Below, in pieces: positions 9,979 through 18,737 of a DNA stretch of 64,000 nt. The translations under genes and the position numbers were made by a program. Within the stretch, counting starts at the first letter, position 1; each line of letters begins with the position of its first letter. This DNA is from an uncultured bacterium (GTDB taxonomy: Bacteria; Patescibacteriota; Minisyncoccia; UBA6257; GWB1-50-10): positions 162,612-226,611 of the forward strand of contig CAVRNT010000001.1 in assembly GCA_963722655.1 (NCBI GenBank), in the 5' to 3' direction. Below the pieces are notes generated by a model, which saw only the letters and a program-made list of their open reading frames with translations, made no database searches and was not told the DNA's origin.

Positions 9979-9982
9979 TTAG

Positions 9983-10069
9983 CGGAGGGGGTGAGATTCG
10001 AACTCACGAAAGGATCTCTCCTTTACCGCATTTCAAGTGCGGCGCGTTAGACCGCTCTGCCACCCCTCC
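9983..10069 (-). tRNA. tRNA-Ser (anticodon TGA), long variable arm
   Basis: Manual fold: acceptor GGAGGGG/CCCCTCC, anticodon loop CTTGAAA, T-loop GTTCGAATC. Confidence 0.8.
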
Positions 10070-10122
10070 GTGCGTTGAACGCCGCGTCATCATAAACCGG
10101 CTGGGACGTTTTAATCAAGATT

Positions 10123-10494
10123 TCAATAATGACTGAAAATGTGGAACACGCTCCCGATTAGCGCCGTGAAACCGAAGATAAGGCCGGCGGCGATTATAAC
10201 GATGGCCACGATGGTCAATATCTTGCCGGCGTGATCGACGGCCTTGATGAAGCCGTTGTATTCGTGCTGGTTCTCGAAGTGCCGGCTCGTCGCGGCCATC
10301 TCGTGGCCTTTAATACCAAGATAGATCATAAAGACGATCCAAAAGAAGAAGTTCACGACCGGCACGAGGTAGAGCAGATACCACCAAAGCATGTGGTACT
10401 TCTTGATGGCGATTAGAAACGGCGCTCCGAAGAGGAATGCGCCCCACGACCAACCCGGCGCGGCGGTGATGCCGCCTTTTTTGGTTTCTTCCAT
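10123..10494 (-). CDS. hypothetical small membrane protein (3-4 TM)
   Basis: 123-aa hydrophobic ORF wedged between tRNA genes. Confidence 0.4.
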   Translation of the reverse strand: MEETKKGGITAAPGWSWGAFLFGAPFLIAIKKYHMLWWYLLYLVPVVNFFFWIVFMIYLGIKGHEMAATSRHFENQHEYNGFIKAVDHAGKILTIVAIVIIAAGLIFGFTALIGSVFHIFSHY

Positions 10495-10519
10495 AGGGAA
10501 ATTATAACAAACTTCGTTG

Positions 10520-10590
10520 TGGACCTACGGGGAATCGAACCCCGACCTCCTCCATGCCATGGAGATGTAATACCGTTTTACTATAGGCCC
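10520..10590 (-). tRNA. tRNA-Ala (anticodon GGC)
   Basis: G3:U70 pair in the acceptor stem, anticodon loop ATGGCAT, T-loop TTCGATT. Confidence 0.75.
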
Positions 10591-10591
10591 G

Positions 10592-10663
10592 TGGGCGTTA
10601 GAGGGATTGAACCTCTGACCTTTTCAATGTCAATGAAACGCTCTACCACTGAGCTAAACGCCC
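10592..10663 (-). tRNA. tRNA-Val (anticodon GAC)
   Basis: Acceptor GGGCGTT/AACGCCC, anticodon loop TTGACAT, T-loop TTCAATC. Confidence 0.8.
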
Positions 10664-10732
10664 GCTGACACACAATATATCAGGAGATTTGTTGCGAGAC
10701 AAGGCGATTTACATTATAAATAAGACGCCCTC

Positions 10733-10804
10733 GCCCTCGTAGCTCAACGGATAGAGCTATTCCGTCCTAAGGAAGAGATGGGGGTTCAATTCCCTCCGAG
10801 GGCA
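10733..10804 (+). tRNA. tRNA-Arg (anticodon CCT)
   Basis: Acceptor GCCCTCG/CGAGGGC, anticodon loop GTCCTAA, T-loop TTCAATT. Confidence 0.75.
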
Positions 10805-10814
10805 CAGAGCAAGT

Positions 10815-10904
10815 GGAGGGTTCGCATAGTGGTCTAGTGCGGCGCACTCGAAATGCGCTTGGGGAGAAATCCCCTCACAGGTTCGAATCCTGTACCCTCC
10901 GCCA
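10815..10904 (+). tRNA. tRNA-Ser (anticodon CGA), long variable arm, CCA encoded
   Basis: Acceptor GGAGGGT/ACCCTCC, anticodon loop CTCGAAA, T-loop GTTCGAATC. Confidence 0.8.
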
Positions 10905-11250: not shown

Positions 11251-11335
11251 TGTTGGTTTGTTTTTTCGACTTGCGGCGGGCGGGTTTCGATTGGGAGGCG
11301 GCGAGGGGTATGGTAGCGGAAGAGGTTAGGTTTTT
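11251..11335. repeat. direct repeat copy A (~85 bp, about 85% identical to 13380..13460)
   Basis: Shared core gttttttcgacttgcgg(c)gggcgggt...gggaggcggcgaggggtatggtagcgga(a/g)gag read in both places. Confidence 0.7.
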
Positions 11336-11350
11336 GGAAGGTTTCATCGT

Positions 11351-12702: not shown

Positions 12703-13353
12703 ATGAGACCGCGATTTTTACAGTTCAGTTGTCGGGAGGGGAACAAGCCCGATTACCGCCAGGCCAATGCCGTGTTGAAATACAAGCCGGACATTATTCT
12801 TTTTGAGATGCCAGCCGAAGGCGGCAACCCGTCGCTTATCTTCAACAGGTATAAGCCGGACAAGAAGCCGTTTACCAAAGTTGAGAAAATAAAAAAATCG
12901 TTGCGCCGTGCCGCAAAAAAATACCCGTATGCCGCTTCGGATATCCGGGTTTGGGAGAACATAGAAAAGCTCTGGCGGGAGGGACGCGAAACACTCCTAT
13001 TCAACGTAGACGCCCCGCAGGAGTTGCGCGCGCATTACCATAAAATCTACGGGGATATTCCTTACACGCAGGTACGACACGAATGGTGGTTTTGGGCTTA
13101 TCTCTTAATAAGGGAGTGCCAGATGGCGGGTCACATCGAAAATATTCTCAAACACTATCGTGTAAAGAGGAAGCCGACCGTTGCCGTGTTCCTCCAAAGC
13201 ATTCATTGGGAACACGTTAAATTCTTGCTTAGGAAACCTTCGGAGAAAGGAATTTGGCGGTACTATTTTGGCAAGTTTCCGGAAATTAGTCCCGCGAACA
13301 TTAGGGGACCGATAAAAAAGAAGGATAAAATTCTGTATAAGTATTGGAAATAA
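12703..13353 (+). CDS. hypothetical protein
   Basis: 216-aa ORF in the low-GC island, followed by the hairpin terminator at 13370. No recognisable motifs. Confidence 0.4.
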   Translation: MRPRFLQFSCREGNKPDYRQANAVLKYKPDIILFEMPAEGGNPSLIFNRYKPDKKPFTKVEKIKKSLRRAAKKYPYAASDIRVWENIEKLWREGRETLLFNVDAPQELRAHYHKIYGDIPYTQVRHEWWFWAYLLIRECQMAGHIENILKHYRVKRKPTVAVFLQSIHWEHVKFLLRKPSEKGIWRYYFGKFPEISPANIRGPIKKKDKILYKYWK

Positions 13354-13369
13354 AAAGGATAGCTTCAAA

Positions 13370-13398
13370 CTGCCCGTTTTGAGGCAGTTTTGTTTTTT
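13370..13398 (+). terminator. rho-independent terminator-like hairpin (ctgcc-cgttttgag-ggcag) followed by a T-run
   Basis: Stem-loop plus ttttgttttttcg immediately 3' of the 12703..13353 ORF. Confidence 0.55.
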
Positions 13399-13460
13399 CG
13401 ACTTGCGGGCGGGTGGGGCTGGGAGGCGGCGAGGGGTATGGTAGCGGAGGAGTGGTAAAT
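13380..13460. repeat. direct repeat copy B (partner of 11251..11335)
   Basis: See copy A. Lies just 3' of the RT stop (minus strand). The minus-strand reading encodes a 36-aa peptide whose N-terminus matches the 94-aa ORF at 11063..11347. Confidence 0.7.
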
Positions 13461-13475
13461 AGGGACAGGGTTCAT

Positions 13476-14501
13476 CTAGGAAGCCCAGAATTTGTTCAAC
13501 AGTTCCTCGCGTACCCCATAAGCATCCGCATGGGATAGGACGCCGAGGTATGACTGCATGGATTGCTCAAAATTCAGCTTGCTGATTTCCCCGGCCTCGT
13601 ATTCTTCCATTCGTTTTTCCAGCTTCCTGAACATCCGGCGCTTGGTTTTCAACCGGATAAGCCTGTGGTGAGGGAAAACGACGTATCCGAGGAAATCTAT
13701 GCCTTGACAAACGGAACTGAGTATGCTTTTATTAGGATGTAGTTTGAGAGCTAGTTCGTTTTCAAAGAATTCAGAGATGAACGGCAGAAGTCCTTCGAGA
13801 TATTTTCTGTCTTCGGAGATTATGACGAAGTCATCGGTGTAGCGAACATAATATTTCACCCGTAATTTATGTTTCACAAACTGATCAAATTCGTTCATGT
13901 AGATATTGGCGAAGAGCTGGGAGGTAAGATTCCCTATCGGGATGCCTCTCCCCGGCGCGCTTTCGTAGCTCTTCACAATGGATTCCAAAAGCCATACCGC
14001 ATCAACGTCCTTGATGCGTTTTTTGATTATGGAAAGGAGAATTTTGTGGTCCACGCTATCGAAAAACTTCCGTACGTCGCACTTCAGGACATAAGAACGG
14101 CGGGTATTGTTCCTACTCACCTTCCTTATCATATTTCCGAGAGCCTCTACTCCCTTATGGTTGCCGTATCCGACCCGGCAGGAAAAAGAGGTCGGGATGA
14201 ATGTCGGCTCGAAGATTGGGTTCAAGACAGAGAAGACGGCGTGGTGGATGATACGGTCCCGCACGGTCGCCTTGTGGATGTGTCGCGGTTTGGGATCGCT
14301 GATGTAGAAGCCTTTGTAGGGGCCGTGAATGTAGGTTTTGTTTGCAAGCTCGCGGTGAAGCTTGAAAATATTCTCCTCCAGATTCCATTCGAAATACCGG
14401 ACGTCTTTCTTGCCAGTCTTCCCGCGCCGGAATTCGTCCCAGGCCGAAAAGAGGTTTTCGGAGGAAATCATCCGTTCGAAGATATTGGCGTATGTTTTCA
14501 T
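13476..14501 (-). CDS. DGR-type reverse transcriptase
   Basis: RT motifs: N-terminal SENLFSAWDEFRRGK, IPIGNLTSQLFANIYM (the DGR-specific IGxxxSQ motif 4 rather than the group II QGxxxSP), and a YVRYTDDFVI catalytic box. 341 aa with no maturase or endonuclease domain. Confidence 0.9.
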   Translation of the reverse strand: MKTYANIFERMISSENLFSAWDEFRRGKTGKKDVRYFEWNLEENIFKLHRELANKTYIHGPYKGFYISDPKPRHIHKATVRDRIIHHAVFSVLNPIFEPTFIPTSFSCRVGYGNHKGVEALGNMIRKVSRNNTRRSYVLKCDVRKFFDSVDHKILLSIIKKRIKDVDAVWLLESIVKSYESAPGRGIPIGNLTSQLFANIYMNEFDQFVKHKLRVKYYVRYTDDFVIISEDRKYLEGLLPFISEFFENELALKLHPNKSILSSVCQGIDFLGYVVFPHHRLIRLKTKRRMFRKLEKRMEEYEAGEISKLNFEQSMQSYLGVLSHADAYGVREELLNKFWAS

Positions 14502-14515
14502 AGATTTAAAAACTA

Positions 14516-14863
14516 ATGGACGACTTCGACATCCCCATCTTCAAAAAGACCTACGACCTCTACAAGACCTTTTACGAATATCGGAATCTCGTCCCAAAGC
14601 TGGACCGGCACACGATCTGGCAGAAATCGGAAGACCTGATACTCGGCATCCTCGAGGGGATTCTCACGGCGAGCAAACTGTATAAGGCGGCTAAGGCGCC
14701 AGTTCTTGAAAATGCGAGCGTCAAACTGAATCTCCTGCGCGTTTTCGTACGTCTCATGAAAGAGGTGAAAACTATCGACAATAAGAAGTACGCGGCGCTG
14801 GAAGAGATGATCGATGAGATTGGCCGGATGCTCGGTGGGTGGATCAAGTCAGCGAAAGAGTGA
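14516..14863 (+). CDS. avd: Avd-like accessory variability determinant (four-helix bundle)
   Basis: 115-aa basic helical protein. C-terminus EEMIDEIGRMLGGWIKSAKE closely matches the Bordetella phage bAvd C-terminus (AEVGRILGSWIARV, recalled from memory). Confidence 0.8.
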   Translation: MDDFDIPIFKKTYDLYKTFYEYRNLVPKLDRHTIWQKSEDLILGILEGILTASKLYKAAKAPVLENASVKLNLLRVFVRLMKEVKTIDNKKYAALEEMIDEIGRMLGGWIKSAKE

Positions 14864-14877
14864 GCGATGGAACAATG

Positions 14878-14895
14878 CCCCGGTATAAGCCGGGG
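14878..14895. terminator. GC hairpin ccccgg-tataag-ccgggg between the avd stop and the TR
   Basis: Perfect 6-bp GC stem. Possible avd terminator or part of the TR RNA 3' structure. Confidence 0.4.
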
Positions 14896-14921
14896 CATTC
14901 CCATTCATTGAAGAGTAACTT

Positions 14922-15048
14922 CGGGACGAAACCCGAGGCCGAACCATAGTTGTCGTTGGCATTGCTGACCCAGTTCGTGTCGAGCTTGACCTTGCCGTCG
15001 TTGAAGTTGAAGTTCGGGGCCTTGGAGAAATCGCCATCGGCATCGGGA
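14922..15048 (-). repeat. DGR template repeat (TR), sense on minus strand
   Basis: 127 bp homologous to the 3' ends of both target genes. Its translation in the target frame is NDGKVKLDTNWVSNANDNYGSASGFVPK, with Asn (AAC) at the variable positions. All TR/VR mismatches fall on TR adenines. Confidence 0.85.
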
Positions 15049-15432
15049 ATCATTGCTCTCGCCCGTCCGTGTCACCGGAAATCGAGGTTTGCCGCTCAAA
15101 AAGGAGCTTATATCCTCTCAATCCTGAATTTTATCCGGCAGCATCCTTTTTAGGGGAATCTGCACTAGACAAGAGCAAGCAGTGATCTCCTCAACACAAC
15201 GCGCTCTTAGAAACCTTGGTCGCTAAGATTCCGGTTGCTTTTCTCTTCCTTGAAGAGAGAGTTCGGTGGCGGCAATCCGTGGACGGCCGTGCATGAACCT
15301 AATCTCATCTTGAATTATACAAAAATAAAGAGGTTGTCCACAATGAAGCGGATAACCTCTCAAAAATGACGGACGAAAGGATCAAAAATGAAATATCAAA
15401 AGATCCAAGCGTTCAATGTGCAACGTTCAGCA

Positions 15433-16341
15433 TCACTGCGGGACGAAACCCGAGGCCGAACCAAAGTAGTCGCCGGCATAGCCGACCCAGCTCGCGCCGA
15501 GCCCGACCCTGCCGTCGCGGAAGTCGAAGCCCGGGGCCCTGGAGAAAACGCCAACGGCAACGGGAGAGAATTCATCGCCCGGGCAATCAACATCCAACTC
15601 CTCGTAACGGACGAGGCGCTCGGGGTGAACCAGTATCTGGCATCCCGTATGGAATGCACCAAGACCAAATTCTGGTGGATCCATGACTTCCCAGGCCCTG
15701 CGAGTCGAACGGCCCGCGTGGCGCTTGCCGAACTGGAACGGGAAGATAAGGATGTCGCCCTTCTGTTTCTCGGCGATGAGTTCAAGCGCTTGAGCCGTGC
15801 GAGCGTGCTCGCGGAACCGATCCGGCAGGATTTCGCCTTCGCGATAGTTGTAGAACTTGCGCGAGGCGGCGATCTTCTCGAGGACGAGATGCGTCGCTCG
15901 GCAGTACCGTTCTTTCGGGTCTTTGACCTCCGGGAAAAACCGGGCGGCCACCGCATCAATCGAGGGAAATGCTCCCCAGCCCTCGGCCCATTCTGGAAGA
16001 GCGAGCGTCGGCAGGACCTTTTCCATGAAGTCCGTAACGTATCCGAGCGAAAGTTGGAAGATACCCGCGAGGATATCGACCTGCTTCCCGATGGGCTTCA
16101 GACCCTTGTACTCCGGAGGGTATGCGTAGCCGGAATGAACTTCCTCATCCGCATATTTGTTGGAGGTGGTGAGTTCCTCGATGATCTTTTTGAGACCATC
16201 TTGTAGTTCTCCACCCCGCTCATTGAGCATTTGAGCGCGGGCGTCGTCGAGCCCGGCTTTGTTGTAGACCGCTTCACAGAGGCCTACGCAATGGAGACCC
16301 TTCGGATCTCTGGACGTGATCAATGTCTTAGACATCGTCAT
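15433..16341 (-). CDS. DGR target protein 1 (variable C-terminal ligand-binding domain, CLec/FGE-like inferred)
   Basis: C-terminus ...DGRVGLGASWVGYAGDYFGSASGFVPQ is encoded by VR1. It is a paralog of the 16559..17440 protein. No signal peptide. Confidence 0.85.
   Translation of the reverse strand: MTMSKTLITSRDPKGLHCVGLCEAVYNKAGLDDARAQMLNERGGELQDGLKKIIEELTTSNKYADEEVHSGYAYPPEYKGLKPIGKQVDILAGIFQLSLGYVTDFMEKVLPTLALPEWAEGWGAFPSIDAVAARFFPEVKDPKERYCRATHLVLEKIAASRKFYNYREGEILPDRFREHARTAQALELIAEKQKGDILIFPFQFGKRHAGRSTRRAWEVMDPPEFGLGAFHTGCQILVHPERLVRYEELDVDCPGDEFSPVAVGVFSRAPGFDFRDGRVGLGASWVGYAGDYFGSASGFVPQ
15436..15565 (-). repeat. variable repeat VR1 (cognate to TR 14922..15048)
   Basis: About 20 substitutions relative to the TR, every one at a TR adenine (seen as T on the plus strand). 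The 3' 23 nt gggacgaaacccgaggccgaacc is identical to the TR (IMH-like). Confidence 0.85.
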
Positions 16342-16408
16342 CGTCTCCTTTCTTTGTTAGTGGATTAAATTGTTTAAGTGCACGTTCCTGAATTTCAGGA
16401 ACTTTTGG

Positions 16409-16437
16409 AGTATACCATAAGAATACTTGTATGTCAA
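16409..16437 (-). promoter_or_regulatory. sigma70-like promoter for target gene 1 (TTGACA-17 bp-TATACT)
   Basis: Read on the minus strand: tttgacatacaagtattcttatggtatact. It is followed by a 9-bp inverted repeat (gttcctgaa/attcaggaac) before the RBS AAAGGAG. Confidence 0.55.
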
Positions 16438-16445
16438 ACTAGATT

Positions 16446-16486
16446 TGAAATAAAAAGAGGGTTGCCAACAAGTGTTGGTAACCCTC
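16446..16486 (-). terminator. rho-independent terminator of target gene 2 (gagggttaccaac-actt-gttggcaaccctc + T-run)
   Basis: 12-bp stem with one mismatch, then ctttttatttc on the minus strand. Confidence 0.55.
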
Positions 16487-16558
16487 AAAAATAACGCGGA
16501 CTAAAGGAGCAAACGACCAGACGTCAAAAGATCCAAGCGTTCAATTTGCAATGTTCGA

Positions 16559-17440
16559 TCACTGCGGGACGAAACCCGAGGCCGAACCATAGTAGTCGCT
16601 GGCAGCGCTGACCCAGCGCGCGCCGAGCCCGACCCTGCCGTCGCTGAAGCGGAAGCTCGGGGCCCCGGAGAAATCGCCATCGGCATCGGGAGCGTATTCG
16701 TCTCCTCCGCAGTCGACGTGCAATTGCTCCCAGCGGACGAGCCGATTATGGGTCAGCACTCTGCATCCTTCGGCGACGCTTCCCAAGCCGAACTCGTTTT
16801 GGTCGTAGAGGACTCTGCCGCGACGGACAGATTTTCCCCTCCAACGCAATCCGGCTTGACTCGGGATGATGATGAGATCACCCGGTTGGTCCTTCTTGAT
16901 TTTTGCCTCAAGCCCGGCCGTCTTTTTCGACTGTTGCAAGCGCCCCGGCCCAAGCTGGCCGTTCCGGTAATTCACGAAGTTTTGATATTTCTTTCCCAGG
17001 GCGGCAAGCACTTGTTCCGTTGCGGCGTTGTAATTGCCGAACGCTTCCCACCACACATAGACCAGCGGGCTTTCAATCCAATCCGGCAGATTCTTTAAGC
17101 TGTCGTACCAGGCCCCTCCCTTAGTTAGAGCCCATGTTGCGTTCAATCCGGGGAAATACTCCAAAAGAATGTCGATCTGCTCTCGGATTGATTTCCGCTT
17201 GTATTCCTTGGGGTAAGTGTAGTCGGACGATTTTTCCTCATCCGCGTAGAGATACTTGATGAATATCTCCTTGCGGGAAATTCGGACTGCCGTTTGCAGC
17301 ATGTCGCCGTGCTTTAGAAGACACTGAGCTTCGTCGTTTGTGGGTTTCGGCGTAAAGAGTTCGTCCTCCATTACGACGCGACTCAGTTGCTTTTCTTGAC
17401 CATCTGTCATTGGCATGATCGATGTGGTATTCATCGTCAT
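16559..17440 (-). CDS. DGR target protein 2 (paralog of target 1)
   Basis: C-terminus ...DGRVGLGARWVSAASDYYGSASGFVPQ is encoded by VR2. The 5' UTR architecture matches target 1. Confidence 0.85.
   Translation of the reverse strand: MTMNTTSIMPMTDGQEKQLSRVVMEDELFTPKPTNDEAQCLLKHGDMLQTAVRISRKEIFIKYLYADEEKSSDYTYPKEYKRKSIREQIDILLEYFPGLNATWALTKGGAWYDSLKNLPDWIESPLVYVWWEAFGNYNAATEQVLAALGKKYQNFVNYRNGQLGPGRLQQSKKTAGLEAKIKKDQPGDLIIIPSQAGLRWRGKSVRRGRVLYDQNEFGLGSVAEGCRVLTHNRLVRWEQLHVDCGGDEYAPDADGDFSGAPSFRFSDGRVGLGARWVSAASDYYGSASGFVPQ
16562..16691 (-). repeat. variable repeat VR2
   Basis: About 19 substitutions relative to the TR, all at TR adenines. Identical 3' IMH-like block. Confidence 0.85.
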
Positions 17441-17509
17441 TGCCTCCTTTCTTTGGTTTAGTGAATATGAAGTTTTTAAGTTGCGTTCTTGGGTTTCAAG
17501 AATGCCATA

Positions 17510-17538
17510 ATATTACCATAATACGGTATAAAAGTCAA
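17510..17538 (-). promoter_or_regulatory. sigma70-like promoter for target gene 2 (TTGACT-17 bp-TAATAT)
   Basis: Minus strand: tttgacttttataccgtattatggtaatat. It is followed by an inverted repeat (gcattcttg/caagaacgc) and the RBS AAAGGAGG. Confidence 0.5.
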
Positions 17539-17779
17539 ATGTGCGTAATGTCCCAATAGCTTGGAATAGCCCCATTGTAGCGTCTCATTTGTCTCATTTG
17601 ATTCGACCGAAACCCCAGAAAGTGACACTTCCCCAATAACCGTTCCACTGTCACTTTTGTAACCTGTCACTTTCCATATAGCCCGACCCGTAGGCCTCGG
17701 AGCGGCTTTTCGGACTCGCGCTCCGAAAATGCTTACACTGATTAAAAGGAAAAAGTCCACAACCGGGGCACACCGCCAG

Positions 17780-17814
17780 TGCAAAAGAGCGACCCGTTGG
17801 GTCGCTCTTTTGCA
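17780..17814. terminator. 16-bp perfect hairpin (tgcaaaagagcgaccc-gtt-gggtcgctcttttgca) just 3' of tRNA-Gly
   Basis: Perfect inverted repeat adjacent to the tRNA 3' end. Confidence 0.45.
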
Positions 17815-17826
17815 TGCACTTTTGGG

Positions 17827-17897
17827 TGCGGGTAGGCGGAATCGGACCGCCGTCTCATCCTTGGCAAGGACGTGTTCTGCCACTAAACCATACCCGC
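17827..17897 (-). tRNA. tRNA-Gly (anticodon GCC)
   Basis: Acceptor GCGGGTA/TACCCGC, anticodon loop TTGCCAA, T-loop TCCGATT. Confidence 0.8.
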
Positions 17898-18064
17898 AGT
17901 CGTCACTCCGGAGGCGGACCGCTCGGCCCCTTCACGTAGGGGGCGCCGGTCGGTCCATGGAACGTTCCGGTGTATTTCGGCGTCGGCCAAAGCGCTAAAA
18001 CCAAATATATCATAAGGCCGAACAAGATGGCAATTAAAATCGAGTAGTGCCACGTTCTCATTTT

Positions 18065-18139
18065 TGGCGTCCCTACGAGGAATCGAACCTCGATCCCAGG
18101 TTCCGCAAACCTGTACTCTATCCGTTGAGCTATAGGGAC
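18065..18139 (-). tRNA. tRNA-Arg (anticodon GCG by manual fold; isotype less certain), CCA encoded
   Basis: Acceptor GTCCCTA/TAGGGAC, anticodon stem CAGGT/ACCTG with loop TTGCGGA. Confidence 0.65.
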
Positions 18140-18147
18140 AACTTTCT

Positions 18148-18657
18148 CTAGAATCCCAGGAACCGCGTGAAGATGTCCATGAAGGACTCTTCGTGTTCCA
18201 CTTCCGGCAACTTTCCTTCCAAGAACTCCCGCGCCTGCGCCGCCGTCTGGCCGTCCAAGAGGACTCGCAGGTACGGATTGAAGGACGTCTTGCGCTTCAG
18301 GACCATTTCGTCCAACCGGTTCGGCCGCTCGGTGATGCTGAAGTTCTCCAAAGCATCATAAGGGTAAAATTGCCTTTCGCCAAGATGGCAGCCGTCTTTG
18401 GTCAAGCGGCATTCCATCACCTCCGGCTTGCGCCGACCGAGCATGATCACCATCGCGGCGGCGAGGACGATGAAAACGGCGAAGAAGAAATCCTTCTGCC
18501 AAAGGGCGATCACGACGAGGAGGAGGGAAAAGGCGATGACCAAAAGATACCAGTTGAGGTCCTTTTCGTAATAGTCATGCTCCGCCGCCCGCCAGCTGAT
18601 CTCTTCGGGTGCCCGCCGCTCTGCGGTGACATTCGTTTGTTTTTTGGTCCTCGGCAT
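18148..18657 (-). CDS. hypothetical membrane protein (2 TM)
   Basis: 169-aa ORF between two tRNA genes. Hydrophobic segments at residues ~35-75. Confidence 0.45.
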   Translation of the reverse strand: MPRTKKQTNVTAERRAPEEISWRAAEHDYYEKDLNWYLLVIAFSLLLVVIALWQKDFFFAVFIVLAAAMVIMLGRRKPEVMECRLTKDGCHLGERQFYPYDALENFSITERPNRLDEMVLKRKTSFNPYLRVLLDGQTAAQAREFLEGKLPEVEHEESFMDIFTRFLGF

Positions 18658-18662
18658 TGTCT

Positions 18663-18737
18663 TGGTAGCCTCACCGGGAATCGAACCCGGATTTACGCCG
18701 TGAAAGGGCGCTGTCCTAACCGTTAGACGATAAGGCC
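18663..18737 (-). tRNA. tRNA-Glu (anticodon TTC), CCA encoded
   Basis: Anticodon stem GCGCC/GGCGT with loop CTTTCAC, T-loop TTCGATT. Confidence 0.75.

Follow-up and report, generated by a model that had tools for sequence, protein, structure and literature searches.

A 64,000-nt stretch of DNA from an uncultured Patescibacteriota bacterium (GenBank contig CAVRNT010000001.1, positions 162,612 to 226,611; termed here the window, whose own coordinates are used throughout) carries a diversity-generating retroelement (DGR) in which the template repeat (TR) is preceded on the minus strand by a structured RNA leader. This leader is a conserved, covarying RNA that is absent from Rfam, and the locus that harbours it is a DGR of the already catalogued architecture B3. 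It is probable, in our judgement, that this is an active DGR, most likely organized as three separate transcription units of which one is a stand-alone TR RNA.

The DGR reverse transcriptase (RT; 341 aa) is encoded on the minus strand at 13476-14501. Its protein matches Pfam RVT_1 (E 4.9e-23) and shows the DGR-clade motifs IGNLTSQ (I/LGxxxSQ) and YTDD (YxDD), and its closest solved relative is bRT of the Bordetella phage (8ub7_A, E 3.8e-48), with group II intron RTs far behind (8.6e-26). The accessory variability determinant gene avd (115 aa; Pfam bAvd, E 8.6e-19) lies on the plus strand at 14516-14863, divergent from the RT and separated from it by 14 bp (14502-14515) between the start codons, and the TR (14918-15048) is found in minus sense past the avd stop at 14863. 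An earlier note on this DNA, made from the letters alone, had proposed this arrangement, and both the coordinates and the Pfam matches support it. The note had also given a canonical order of target-avd-TR-RT on one strand, which holds for the Bordetella phage prototype and from which the window differs.

The claim that such a geometry is unusual was, however, not borne out. Among 372 DGRs classified by Wu et al. 2018 (NAR 46:11, PMC5758913), architecture B3 is defined as TR-(avd)-RT, with parentheses denoting the reverse strand, and accounts for 90% of the set from the candidate phyla radiation (CPR). The window is TR-(avd)-RT with avd reversed and no further accessory gene; core order, strands, upstream position of the targets and lineage are all those of B3, with no difference in gene order. 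A search of genome contigs with the RT returned 571 relatives, and the best 80 of these (48-77% identity), mostly from Patescibacteria/CPR or unclassified metagenome-assembled genomes, in addition to two Nanoarchaeia contigs and a small number of bins labelled Gammaproteobacteria, served as the comparative loci. In 76 of the 80, avd was detectable, and in 76 of 76 it is divergent from the RT, at a start-codon gap of -2 to 106 bp; the remaining four lack an avd match, two of these being ended by the contig edge. A TR with its variable repeat (VR) was detectable in ~57 loci, and in all but two of them (~55) the TR follows closely on the avd stop, on the strand of the RT. Comparison with catalogued DGRs of related genomes, a check that the note itself had named, therefore finds the order common; it is the rule for this clade, and a divergent avd beside a DGR RT in a CPR genome is the norm and not an anomaly.

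The TR is 131 nt long, with 31 adenines and six AAC. Upstream, on the same strand, are target gene 1 (15433-16341, 302 aa) and target gene 2 (16559-17440, 293 aa), harbouring at their 3' ends VR1 (15435-15565) and VR2 (16561-16691), respectively, both of which end at the stop codon of the target gene. All mismatches to the TR (22 of 22 in VR1 and 18 of 18 in VR2) are at TR adenines, 26 of the 31 adenines are altered in one VR or both, and every one of the 31 falls at codon position 1 or 2, with none at position 3. Because the mismatches are confined to TR adenines, of which 26 of 31 have varied and none is at codon position 3, the sequences indicate that this DGR is, or recently was, active. 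The initiation of mutagenic homing elements (IMH and IMH*) are present as a GC-rich block GGCCTCGGGTTTCGTCCCG that is identical in TR and VR, followed by AAGTTA in the TR versus CAGTGA in the VR. A fixed one-base discriminator closes the TR/VR homology (14916-14921 versus 15433-15438 and 16559-16564 in the window) and recurs across loci: one subgroup features G-A-AGU in the TR and G-C-AG in the VR, whereas the other is reversed, with G-C-AGU in the TR and G-A-AGU in the VR. Since its direction is reversed between subgroups, the discriminator is to be read as the IMH/IMH* mark and not as a product of adenine mutagenesis.

The DNA upstream of the TR was aligned across loci, and three conserved parts were found: a terminator of the target gene, a -10 hexamer and a hairpin between the TR and the avd stop. 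The leader, which fills the space from the -10 hexamer to the TR, spans ~260 nt (15049-15309, minus strand). From its 5' end it comprises helices P1 (15270-15289), P2 (15242-15258) and P3 (15197-15237), a purine strand TTGAGGAG (15187-15194), an invariant ACU (15181-15183), the 11-bp helix P4 (15167-15177 paired with 15054-15064), the hairpin P5 (15138-15163), a conserved A-rich single strand CGGAUAAAAUUCA (15125-15137), the long stem P6 with two interior loops (15077-15124) and GGUGAC (15071-15076); the 3' strand of P4 then ends ~6 nt before the TR. For 36 loci, RNAalifold returned 48 pairs, 41 of them with compensatory changes. The core structure, that is, hand-drawn helices P4, P5, P6a and P6b scored on a plain MAFFT alignment, has standard pairs in 92.9% of cells versus 72.7% under column shuffles (none of 500 as high) and 40-51% when the partners are slid by 1-3 columns, and 26 of its 28 pairs have changed on both sides. 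On an alignment of 73 sequences fitted to the model, 94.6% of cells are paired and all 28 pairs covary; for P4 the paired fraction is 98.6%, and single positions show as many as six kinds of pair.

R1, a covariance model built on this core, was run against both strands of the window and the 80 loci, 859 kb in total, and returned 73 matches, exactly one per DGR (found in 72 of the 80 loci), each on the TR strand and ending at the TR start, and none elsewhere. The match in the window is the sole one in 64 kb (15047-15204, minus strand; 133 bits, E 4e-29). Among the matched loci are those whose contig lacks a VR, both loci in which the TR is relocated, and a distant RT subclade (L050, L056, L059-L079) that retains the TR-(avd)-RT order together with the leader motif at 23-60 bits. 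In the two relocated cases (L047, 4068-4311, and L076, 113-387, both on the minus strand), TR and leader stand together on the strand opposite to the RT, away from the avd stop; therefore, the leader-TR unit moves as one module, independent of the RT. In locus L069, a second strong match is found at the far end of the locus (12803-12960, minus strand; 130 bits), and this second match to the leader model implies that the contig holds a putative second DGR.

A search of 13000-17800 against Rfam 15 (E <= 1) yielded only chance matches, H19_2 and sX6 (the latter on the hairpin between TR and avd), and no RT or DGR motif, while the same search recovered RF03022 Phage_DGR on the Spacer of Bordetella phage BPP-1 at 104.7 bits. 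No description of the leader was found in the literature searched, although an earlier one is possible (for example, Paul et al. 2017 was outside the search). The B3 paper of Wu et al. (PMC5758913) is silent on it and has no treatment of RNA structure, promoter or terminator near the TR, the terms 'RNA structure', 'noncoding' and 'intergenic' being absent from its text. The analysis of Handa et al. (bioRxiv 10.1101/2023.10.23.563531) was confined to the 40 nt before and the 100 nt after the TR, and a 2022 review speaks of a 'trailing' structured RNA in DGRs.

Immediately ahead of the leader are the signals that would separate it from the target genes. A terminator-like hairpin of target gene 1 (15328-15361, minus strand), followed by UUUAUUUUU, has a folding energy of -18.7 kcal/mol (z -5.2; 0 of 200 shuffles equal it), and the equivalent hairpin plus T-run aligns in relatives. 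The minus-strand promoter-like element pointed out in the earlier note is present, with TTGTGG at 15338-15343 and, after an 18-nt spacer, TATAAT at 15314-15319. Its -35 is weak: TTGTGG agrees with the consensus at just three of six positions and lies within the 3' arm of the terminator hairpin, and a scan for consensus promoters did not return the site. The -10 is conserved: a TAnnnT hexamer was found in the upstream search interval in 38 of 38 loci, at a median of 264 nt before the TR, with 29 of the 38 scoring at least 5/6. In 14 of 14 printed loci the hexamer falls in a single alignment column, and it is positioned 5-12 nt ahead of the conserved RNA start. It is kept, with TTGnnn 17-18 nt upstream, also in the four loci (L008, L009, L016 and L052) where the target gene is divergent and therefore cannot supply the TR transcript. 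Thus the TR most likely has its own putative promoter and transcription unit, and a TR-RT co-transcript reading through ~350 nt of antisense avd, as the note had supposed, is not required, given the conserved -10 box upstream and a terminator-like hairpin downstream of the TR.

That downstream hairpin (14874-14899) has a 10-bp stem (14874-14883 with 14890-14899) and can form on both strands; its central part, ccccgg-tataag-ccgggg (14878-14895), sits between the avd stop and the TR 3' end, as already noticed from the letters. Its folding energy is -26.4 kcal/mol, equalled by 0 of 200 shuffles (z -4.4 for the minus strand and -4.6 for the plus strand). Across 38 loci the structure is kept and the sequence is not: stems are perfect and of median 13 bp (range 6-17), loops are of 3-8 nt, and the 5' arm is A-rich and the 3' arm T/U-rich. 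The hairpin starts at a median of 14 nt past the end of TR/VR homology, and the median distance from its other end to the avd stop is 2 nt. It is thus likely, from fold and position, a shared bidirectional intrinsic terminator for the convergent TR RNA and avd mRNA. The hairpin is also positionally equivalent to the Avd-binding stem-loop of Bordetella phage, which is located directly 3' of the TR and is widespread, CPR DGRs included (Handa et al., bioRxiv 10.1101/2023.10.23.563531), and the two roles are compatible.

Between TR and hairpin, the 3' linker (14900-14920, minus strand) features AGU (14918-14920, the last three nt of the TR) and a pyrimidine strand CUCUUCAA (14908-14915). The ACU plus UUGAGGAG of the leader are their complements, and the two sides would make a candidate closing duplex, template:primer-like. 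The complementarity is locus-specific: it is between GGAUGGAG and CUCCAUCC in L002, between GGAUAGAG and CUCUAUCC in L040, L042, L051 and L052, between GUGAGGAG and CUCCUCAC in L027 versus GCGAGGAG and CUCCUUGC in L012, and between AAGGAUU and AAUCUUU in L048. An ungapped 8-mer pairing test discriminated poorly (7.3 versus 6.9 pairs) because G-U pairs are allowed and a GGAG/CUCC core is shared; duplex energies were therefore used instead. The mean energy of the leader duplex is -12.2 kcal/mol with the 3' linker versus -6.3 kcal/mol with the TR 5' flank, and the linker is the better partner in 37 of 37 loci, for which reason the TR 5' flank, the partner of the purine strand in an RNAfold prediction on the window alone, was rejected. 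Relative to all test windows of the locus concerned, the cognate linker is within the best 5% for 30 of 37 loci and within the best 1% for 17 of them. From these energies we infer a leader-linker duplex.

Taken together, the locus can be pictured as follows. In the first unit, the target genes would end at their own terminator hairpin. The second would be a stand-alone non-coding TR RNA of ~440 nt, from ~15309 (~7 nt past TATAAT) to ~14866, in which the structured leader of 260 nt, the TR of 131 nt and the linker of ~20 nt follow one another and the end is at the hairpin. In the third, avd and RT would be expressed divergently from the 14-bp junction, with the avd transcript converging on that same hairpin. 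The leader would provide on the 5' side of the template what the 140-nt Spacer provides on the 3' side in Bordetella phage: P4 would clamp the sequence just upstream of the TR like the 'stop' duplex of the cDNA; the stem-loop, the A-rich single strand and the long interrupted stem would be counterparts of RT-binding elements; and the purine strand, by pairing with the 3' linker, would bring the 3' end of the TR to the RT, where cDNA synthesis could be self-primed. The RNA ends, termination at the hairpin and the functional equivalence of leader and Spacer are what we infer from these features.

In BPP-1 the genes are all on one strand, as mtd-avd-TR-Spacer-brt. In its cryo-EM structure, Sp59-70 forms an 11-bp duplex with the segment just 5' of the TR; a template:primer duplex stacks on this one, and the TR loops out between the two. 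Next in order are a small stem-loop, two adenosines, a single-stranded 'thumb ring' of 13 nt and a long stem interrupted by two interior loops (bioRxiv 10.1101/2023.10.23.563531). The window resembles BPP-1 in its homologous RT and Avd, in adenine-specific transfer from TR to VR, in an 11-bp helix that clamps the sequence 5' of the TR, in a stem-loop directly 3' of the TR, and in the cyclic order of the elements (primer strand, strand of the stop duplex, stem-loop, A-rich single strand and long interrupted stem); this topology would be compatible with a self-priming scaffold like that of the BPP-1 DGR RNA. The two differ in several respects. The Spacer is 3' of the TR, next to brt, whereas in the window the module is 5' of the TR and the RNA would end ~50 nt past it; avd is reversed in the window; helices P1-P3 have nothing equivalent in BPP-1; at the target site, a periodic CTTG array in the window takes the place of the GC-rich cruciform of BPP-1; and no sequence or profile similarity between the two RNAs is detectable (Rfam RF03022 Phage_DGR being the RT-10 motif of Weinberg et al. 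2017).

A similar topology is familiar from retrons. In the retron msr-msd RNA, a structured RT-recruiting and priming module is located 5' of the template and is separate from the protein-coding parts, and a duplex of the 5' and 3' flanks brings the template 3' end to the priming nucleotide. The order of 5' module, template and closing duplex proposed for the window RNA is like that of retrons. Retrons, however, have an RT of another clade and lack Avd, and their product is not used in adenine-mutagenic retrohoming; no homology is claimed. The chances seem to us evenly balanced that, in CPR/DPANN (B3) elements, the DGR RNA is a circularly permuted form of the Bordetella phage RNA, in which the module for recruitment of RT and Avd, priming and stop lies 5' of the template, in retron-like order, on an independent RNA of ~440 nt. 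On this reading the two RNAs would differ only in where their ends fall, the module of the CPR elements being directly continuous with the strand that clamps the TR 5' flank. The argument for this permutation is drawn from topology and covariation, not from homology or biochemistry.

Several observations weigh against the organization proposed above. In the window itself the leader-linker duplex is weak, at -11.3 kcal/mol (12.8% of other windows equal it), and pairing with the 5' end of the TR instead comes close to it, at -10.7 kcal/mol. The leader is not linked to the Spacer by sequence, either through Rfam Phage_DGR or through R1 (the best score of R1 against BPP-1, with filters off, is 3.7 bits), so that the correspondence between the two is one of order and topology. 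The window hairpin has no clean U-run (CAUUGUUCC), and because of this termination there may be partial. In the distant subclade no hairpin is found between TR and avd, the avd stop being 3-31 nt from the TR end, after a conserved CAACTCTCTTCATTTCT. Furthermore, no RT promoter was identified in the 14-bp gap, so that read-through from the TR promoter is formally possible. The last three points, plus the reading by Handa et al. of stem-loops just 3' of the TR, those of CPR DGRs included, as Avd-binding, would favour TR and RT on one long RNA that passes through the hairpin and ~350 nt of antisense avd, the hairpin being only a structural or Avd-binding element. Such an RNA would collide head-on with avd transcription, and the hairpins of 38 loci, with their long perfect stems, U-rich 3' arms and a distance of 2 nt from the avd stop, have the classic look of a bidirectional terminator. 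Nor is it needed: the structured module that would recruit the RT already precedes the TR, and, according to Wu et al. 2018 (PMC5758913), some DGRs require at least two transcription units and TR and RT can lie on different strands. One long RNA is therefore unlikely, if not negligibly so.

The 260-nt region might, instead, be outside the TR RNA, as a 3' untranslated region or terminator of the target gene, a cis-regulatory leader or a small-protein gene; it is indeed directly downstream of target gene 1 in the window and is overlapped by short open reading frames (ORFs; 33-46 aa). Its position and strand relative to the TR are, however, kept where the target is inverted and ~1.3 kb off (L005, L008, L009, L011, L016, L035 and L052), and the target terminator and the -10 box precede it. 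Moreover, the short ORFs are not conserved, substitutions are compensatory in helices and not codon-like, and no protein gene follows downstream on the same strand, which leaves such a role very improbable. Least credible of all is that the geometry is an artefact, either of a misassembled inversion in a metagenome bin or of a miscalled avd strand, for which a 110-aa ORF on the minus strand over the same DNA (14572-14904) could be the real gene. The plus-strand ORF is the one that matches Pfam bAvd, at 8.6e-19, while the minus-strand ORF matches no Pfam family; the divergent orientation recurs in 76 independent assemblies; and the layout has been published as architecture B3 (PMC5758913). On these three grounds the artefact is refuted.

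If the three-unit organization with a permuted RNA is true, the permutation would free avd and RT to form a divergent pair, which would explain the B3 gene order. A large part of all DGRs is found in CPR and DPANN organisms, and to our knowledge the DGR mechanism is known only from one phage. The leader is a concrete RNA for reconstitution with a CPR RT-Avd pair, and with it one can ask if the arrangement for priming and stop resolved by cryo-EM is universal yet open to permutation. The covariance model, in addition, locates TRs even where no VR is on the contig.

At the junction of the divergent pair, the spacing between the RT and avd start codons is -2 to +15 bp in 46 close loci, several of which overlap as CATG or CATATG. 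This gap (14499-14518 in the window; 46 related loci) is too short for a Shine-Dalgarno site or a promoter. The promoters of RT and avd must be inside the coding sequence of the partner, or the mRNAs must be leaderless. No promoter call was possible for either gene, because the flanks are constrained by the N-terminal codons of Avd and RT (GGTATATC and TTATAAAT).

The protein of target gene 1 has no Pfam match and no sequence match in PDB, and is 64% identical to the target of L008. Target gene 2 is its paralogue, with homologues adjoining the DGRs of related loci. Downstream of each VR in the window is a (C)TTG(A) repeat array with a period of ~8 nt, at 15375-15432 after VR1 and 16500-16558 after VR2 (both on the minus strand); these two copies, termed repeat family D4, are 94% identical. 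In the window and loci L001-L079, four to six (C)TTG(A) motifs are found directly downstream of every VR. Over 64 VR tails, CTTG is observed 2.48 times per 70 nt versus 0.33 expected, and, of 208 spacings between consecutive TTGs, 140 measure 7-9 nt; the array may be an element for target-site recognition. A GC-rich inverted repeat or hairpin downstream of the VRs was not significant (z -2.1 and -0.1 for the two VR-tail folds); such a repeat downstream of the IMH is found in only 34% of DGRs and is thus not universal (Wu et al. 2018, PMC5758913).

On the other side of the RT, the stop codon and the ATG of a 36-aa ORF form TAGATG at 13473-13478, as the earlier note had read it. A direct repeat of ~90 bp (copies at 11254-11347 and 13386-13478) flanks a 2.1-kb segment directly after the RT stop, which consists of three genes for proteins of 228 aa, 184 aa (membrane-like) and 216 aa. 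The right copy creates the 36-aa ORF, while a 94-aa ORF begins with the left copy. With no homologue of it in the 80 loci, the 36-aa ORF was rejected as a DGR component and is a non-conserved by-product of the repeat. The repeat plus the three-gene segment may be the footprint of an insertion. Two tRNA clusters, respectively of Ser, Ala, Val, Arg and Ser (9982-10904) and of Gly, Arg and Glu (17823-18737), flank the DGR together with the inserted segment, and the region between them may represent an island context.

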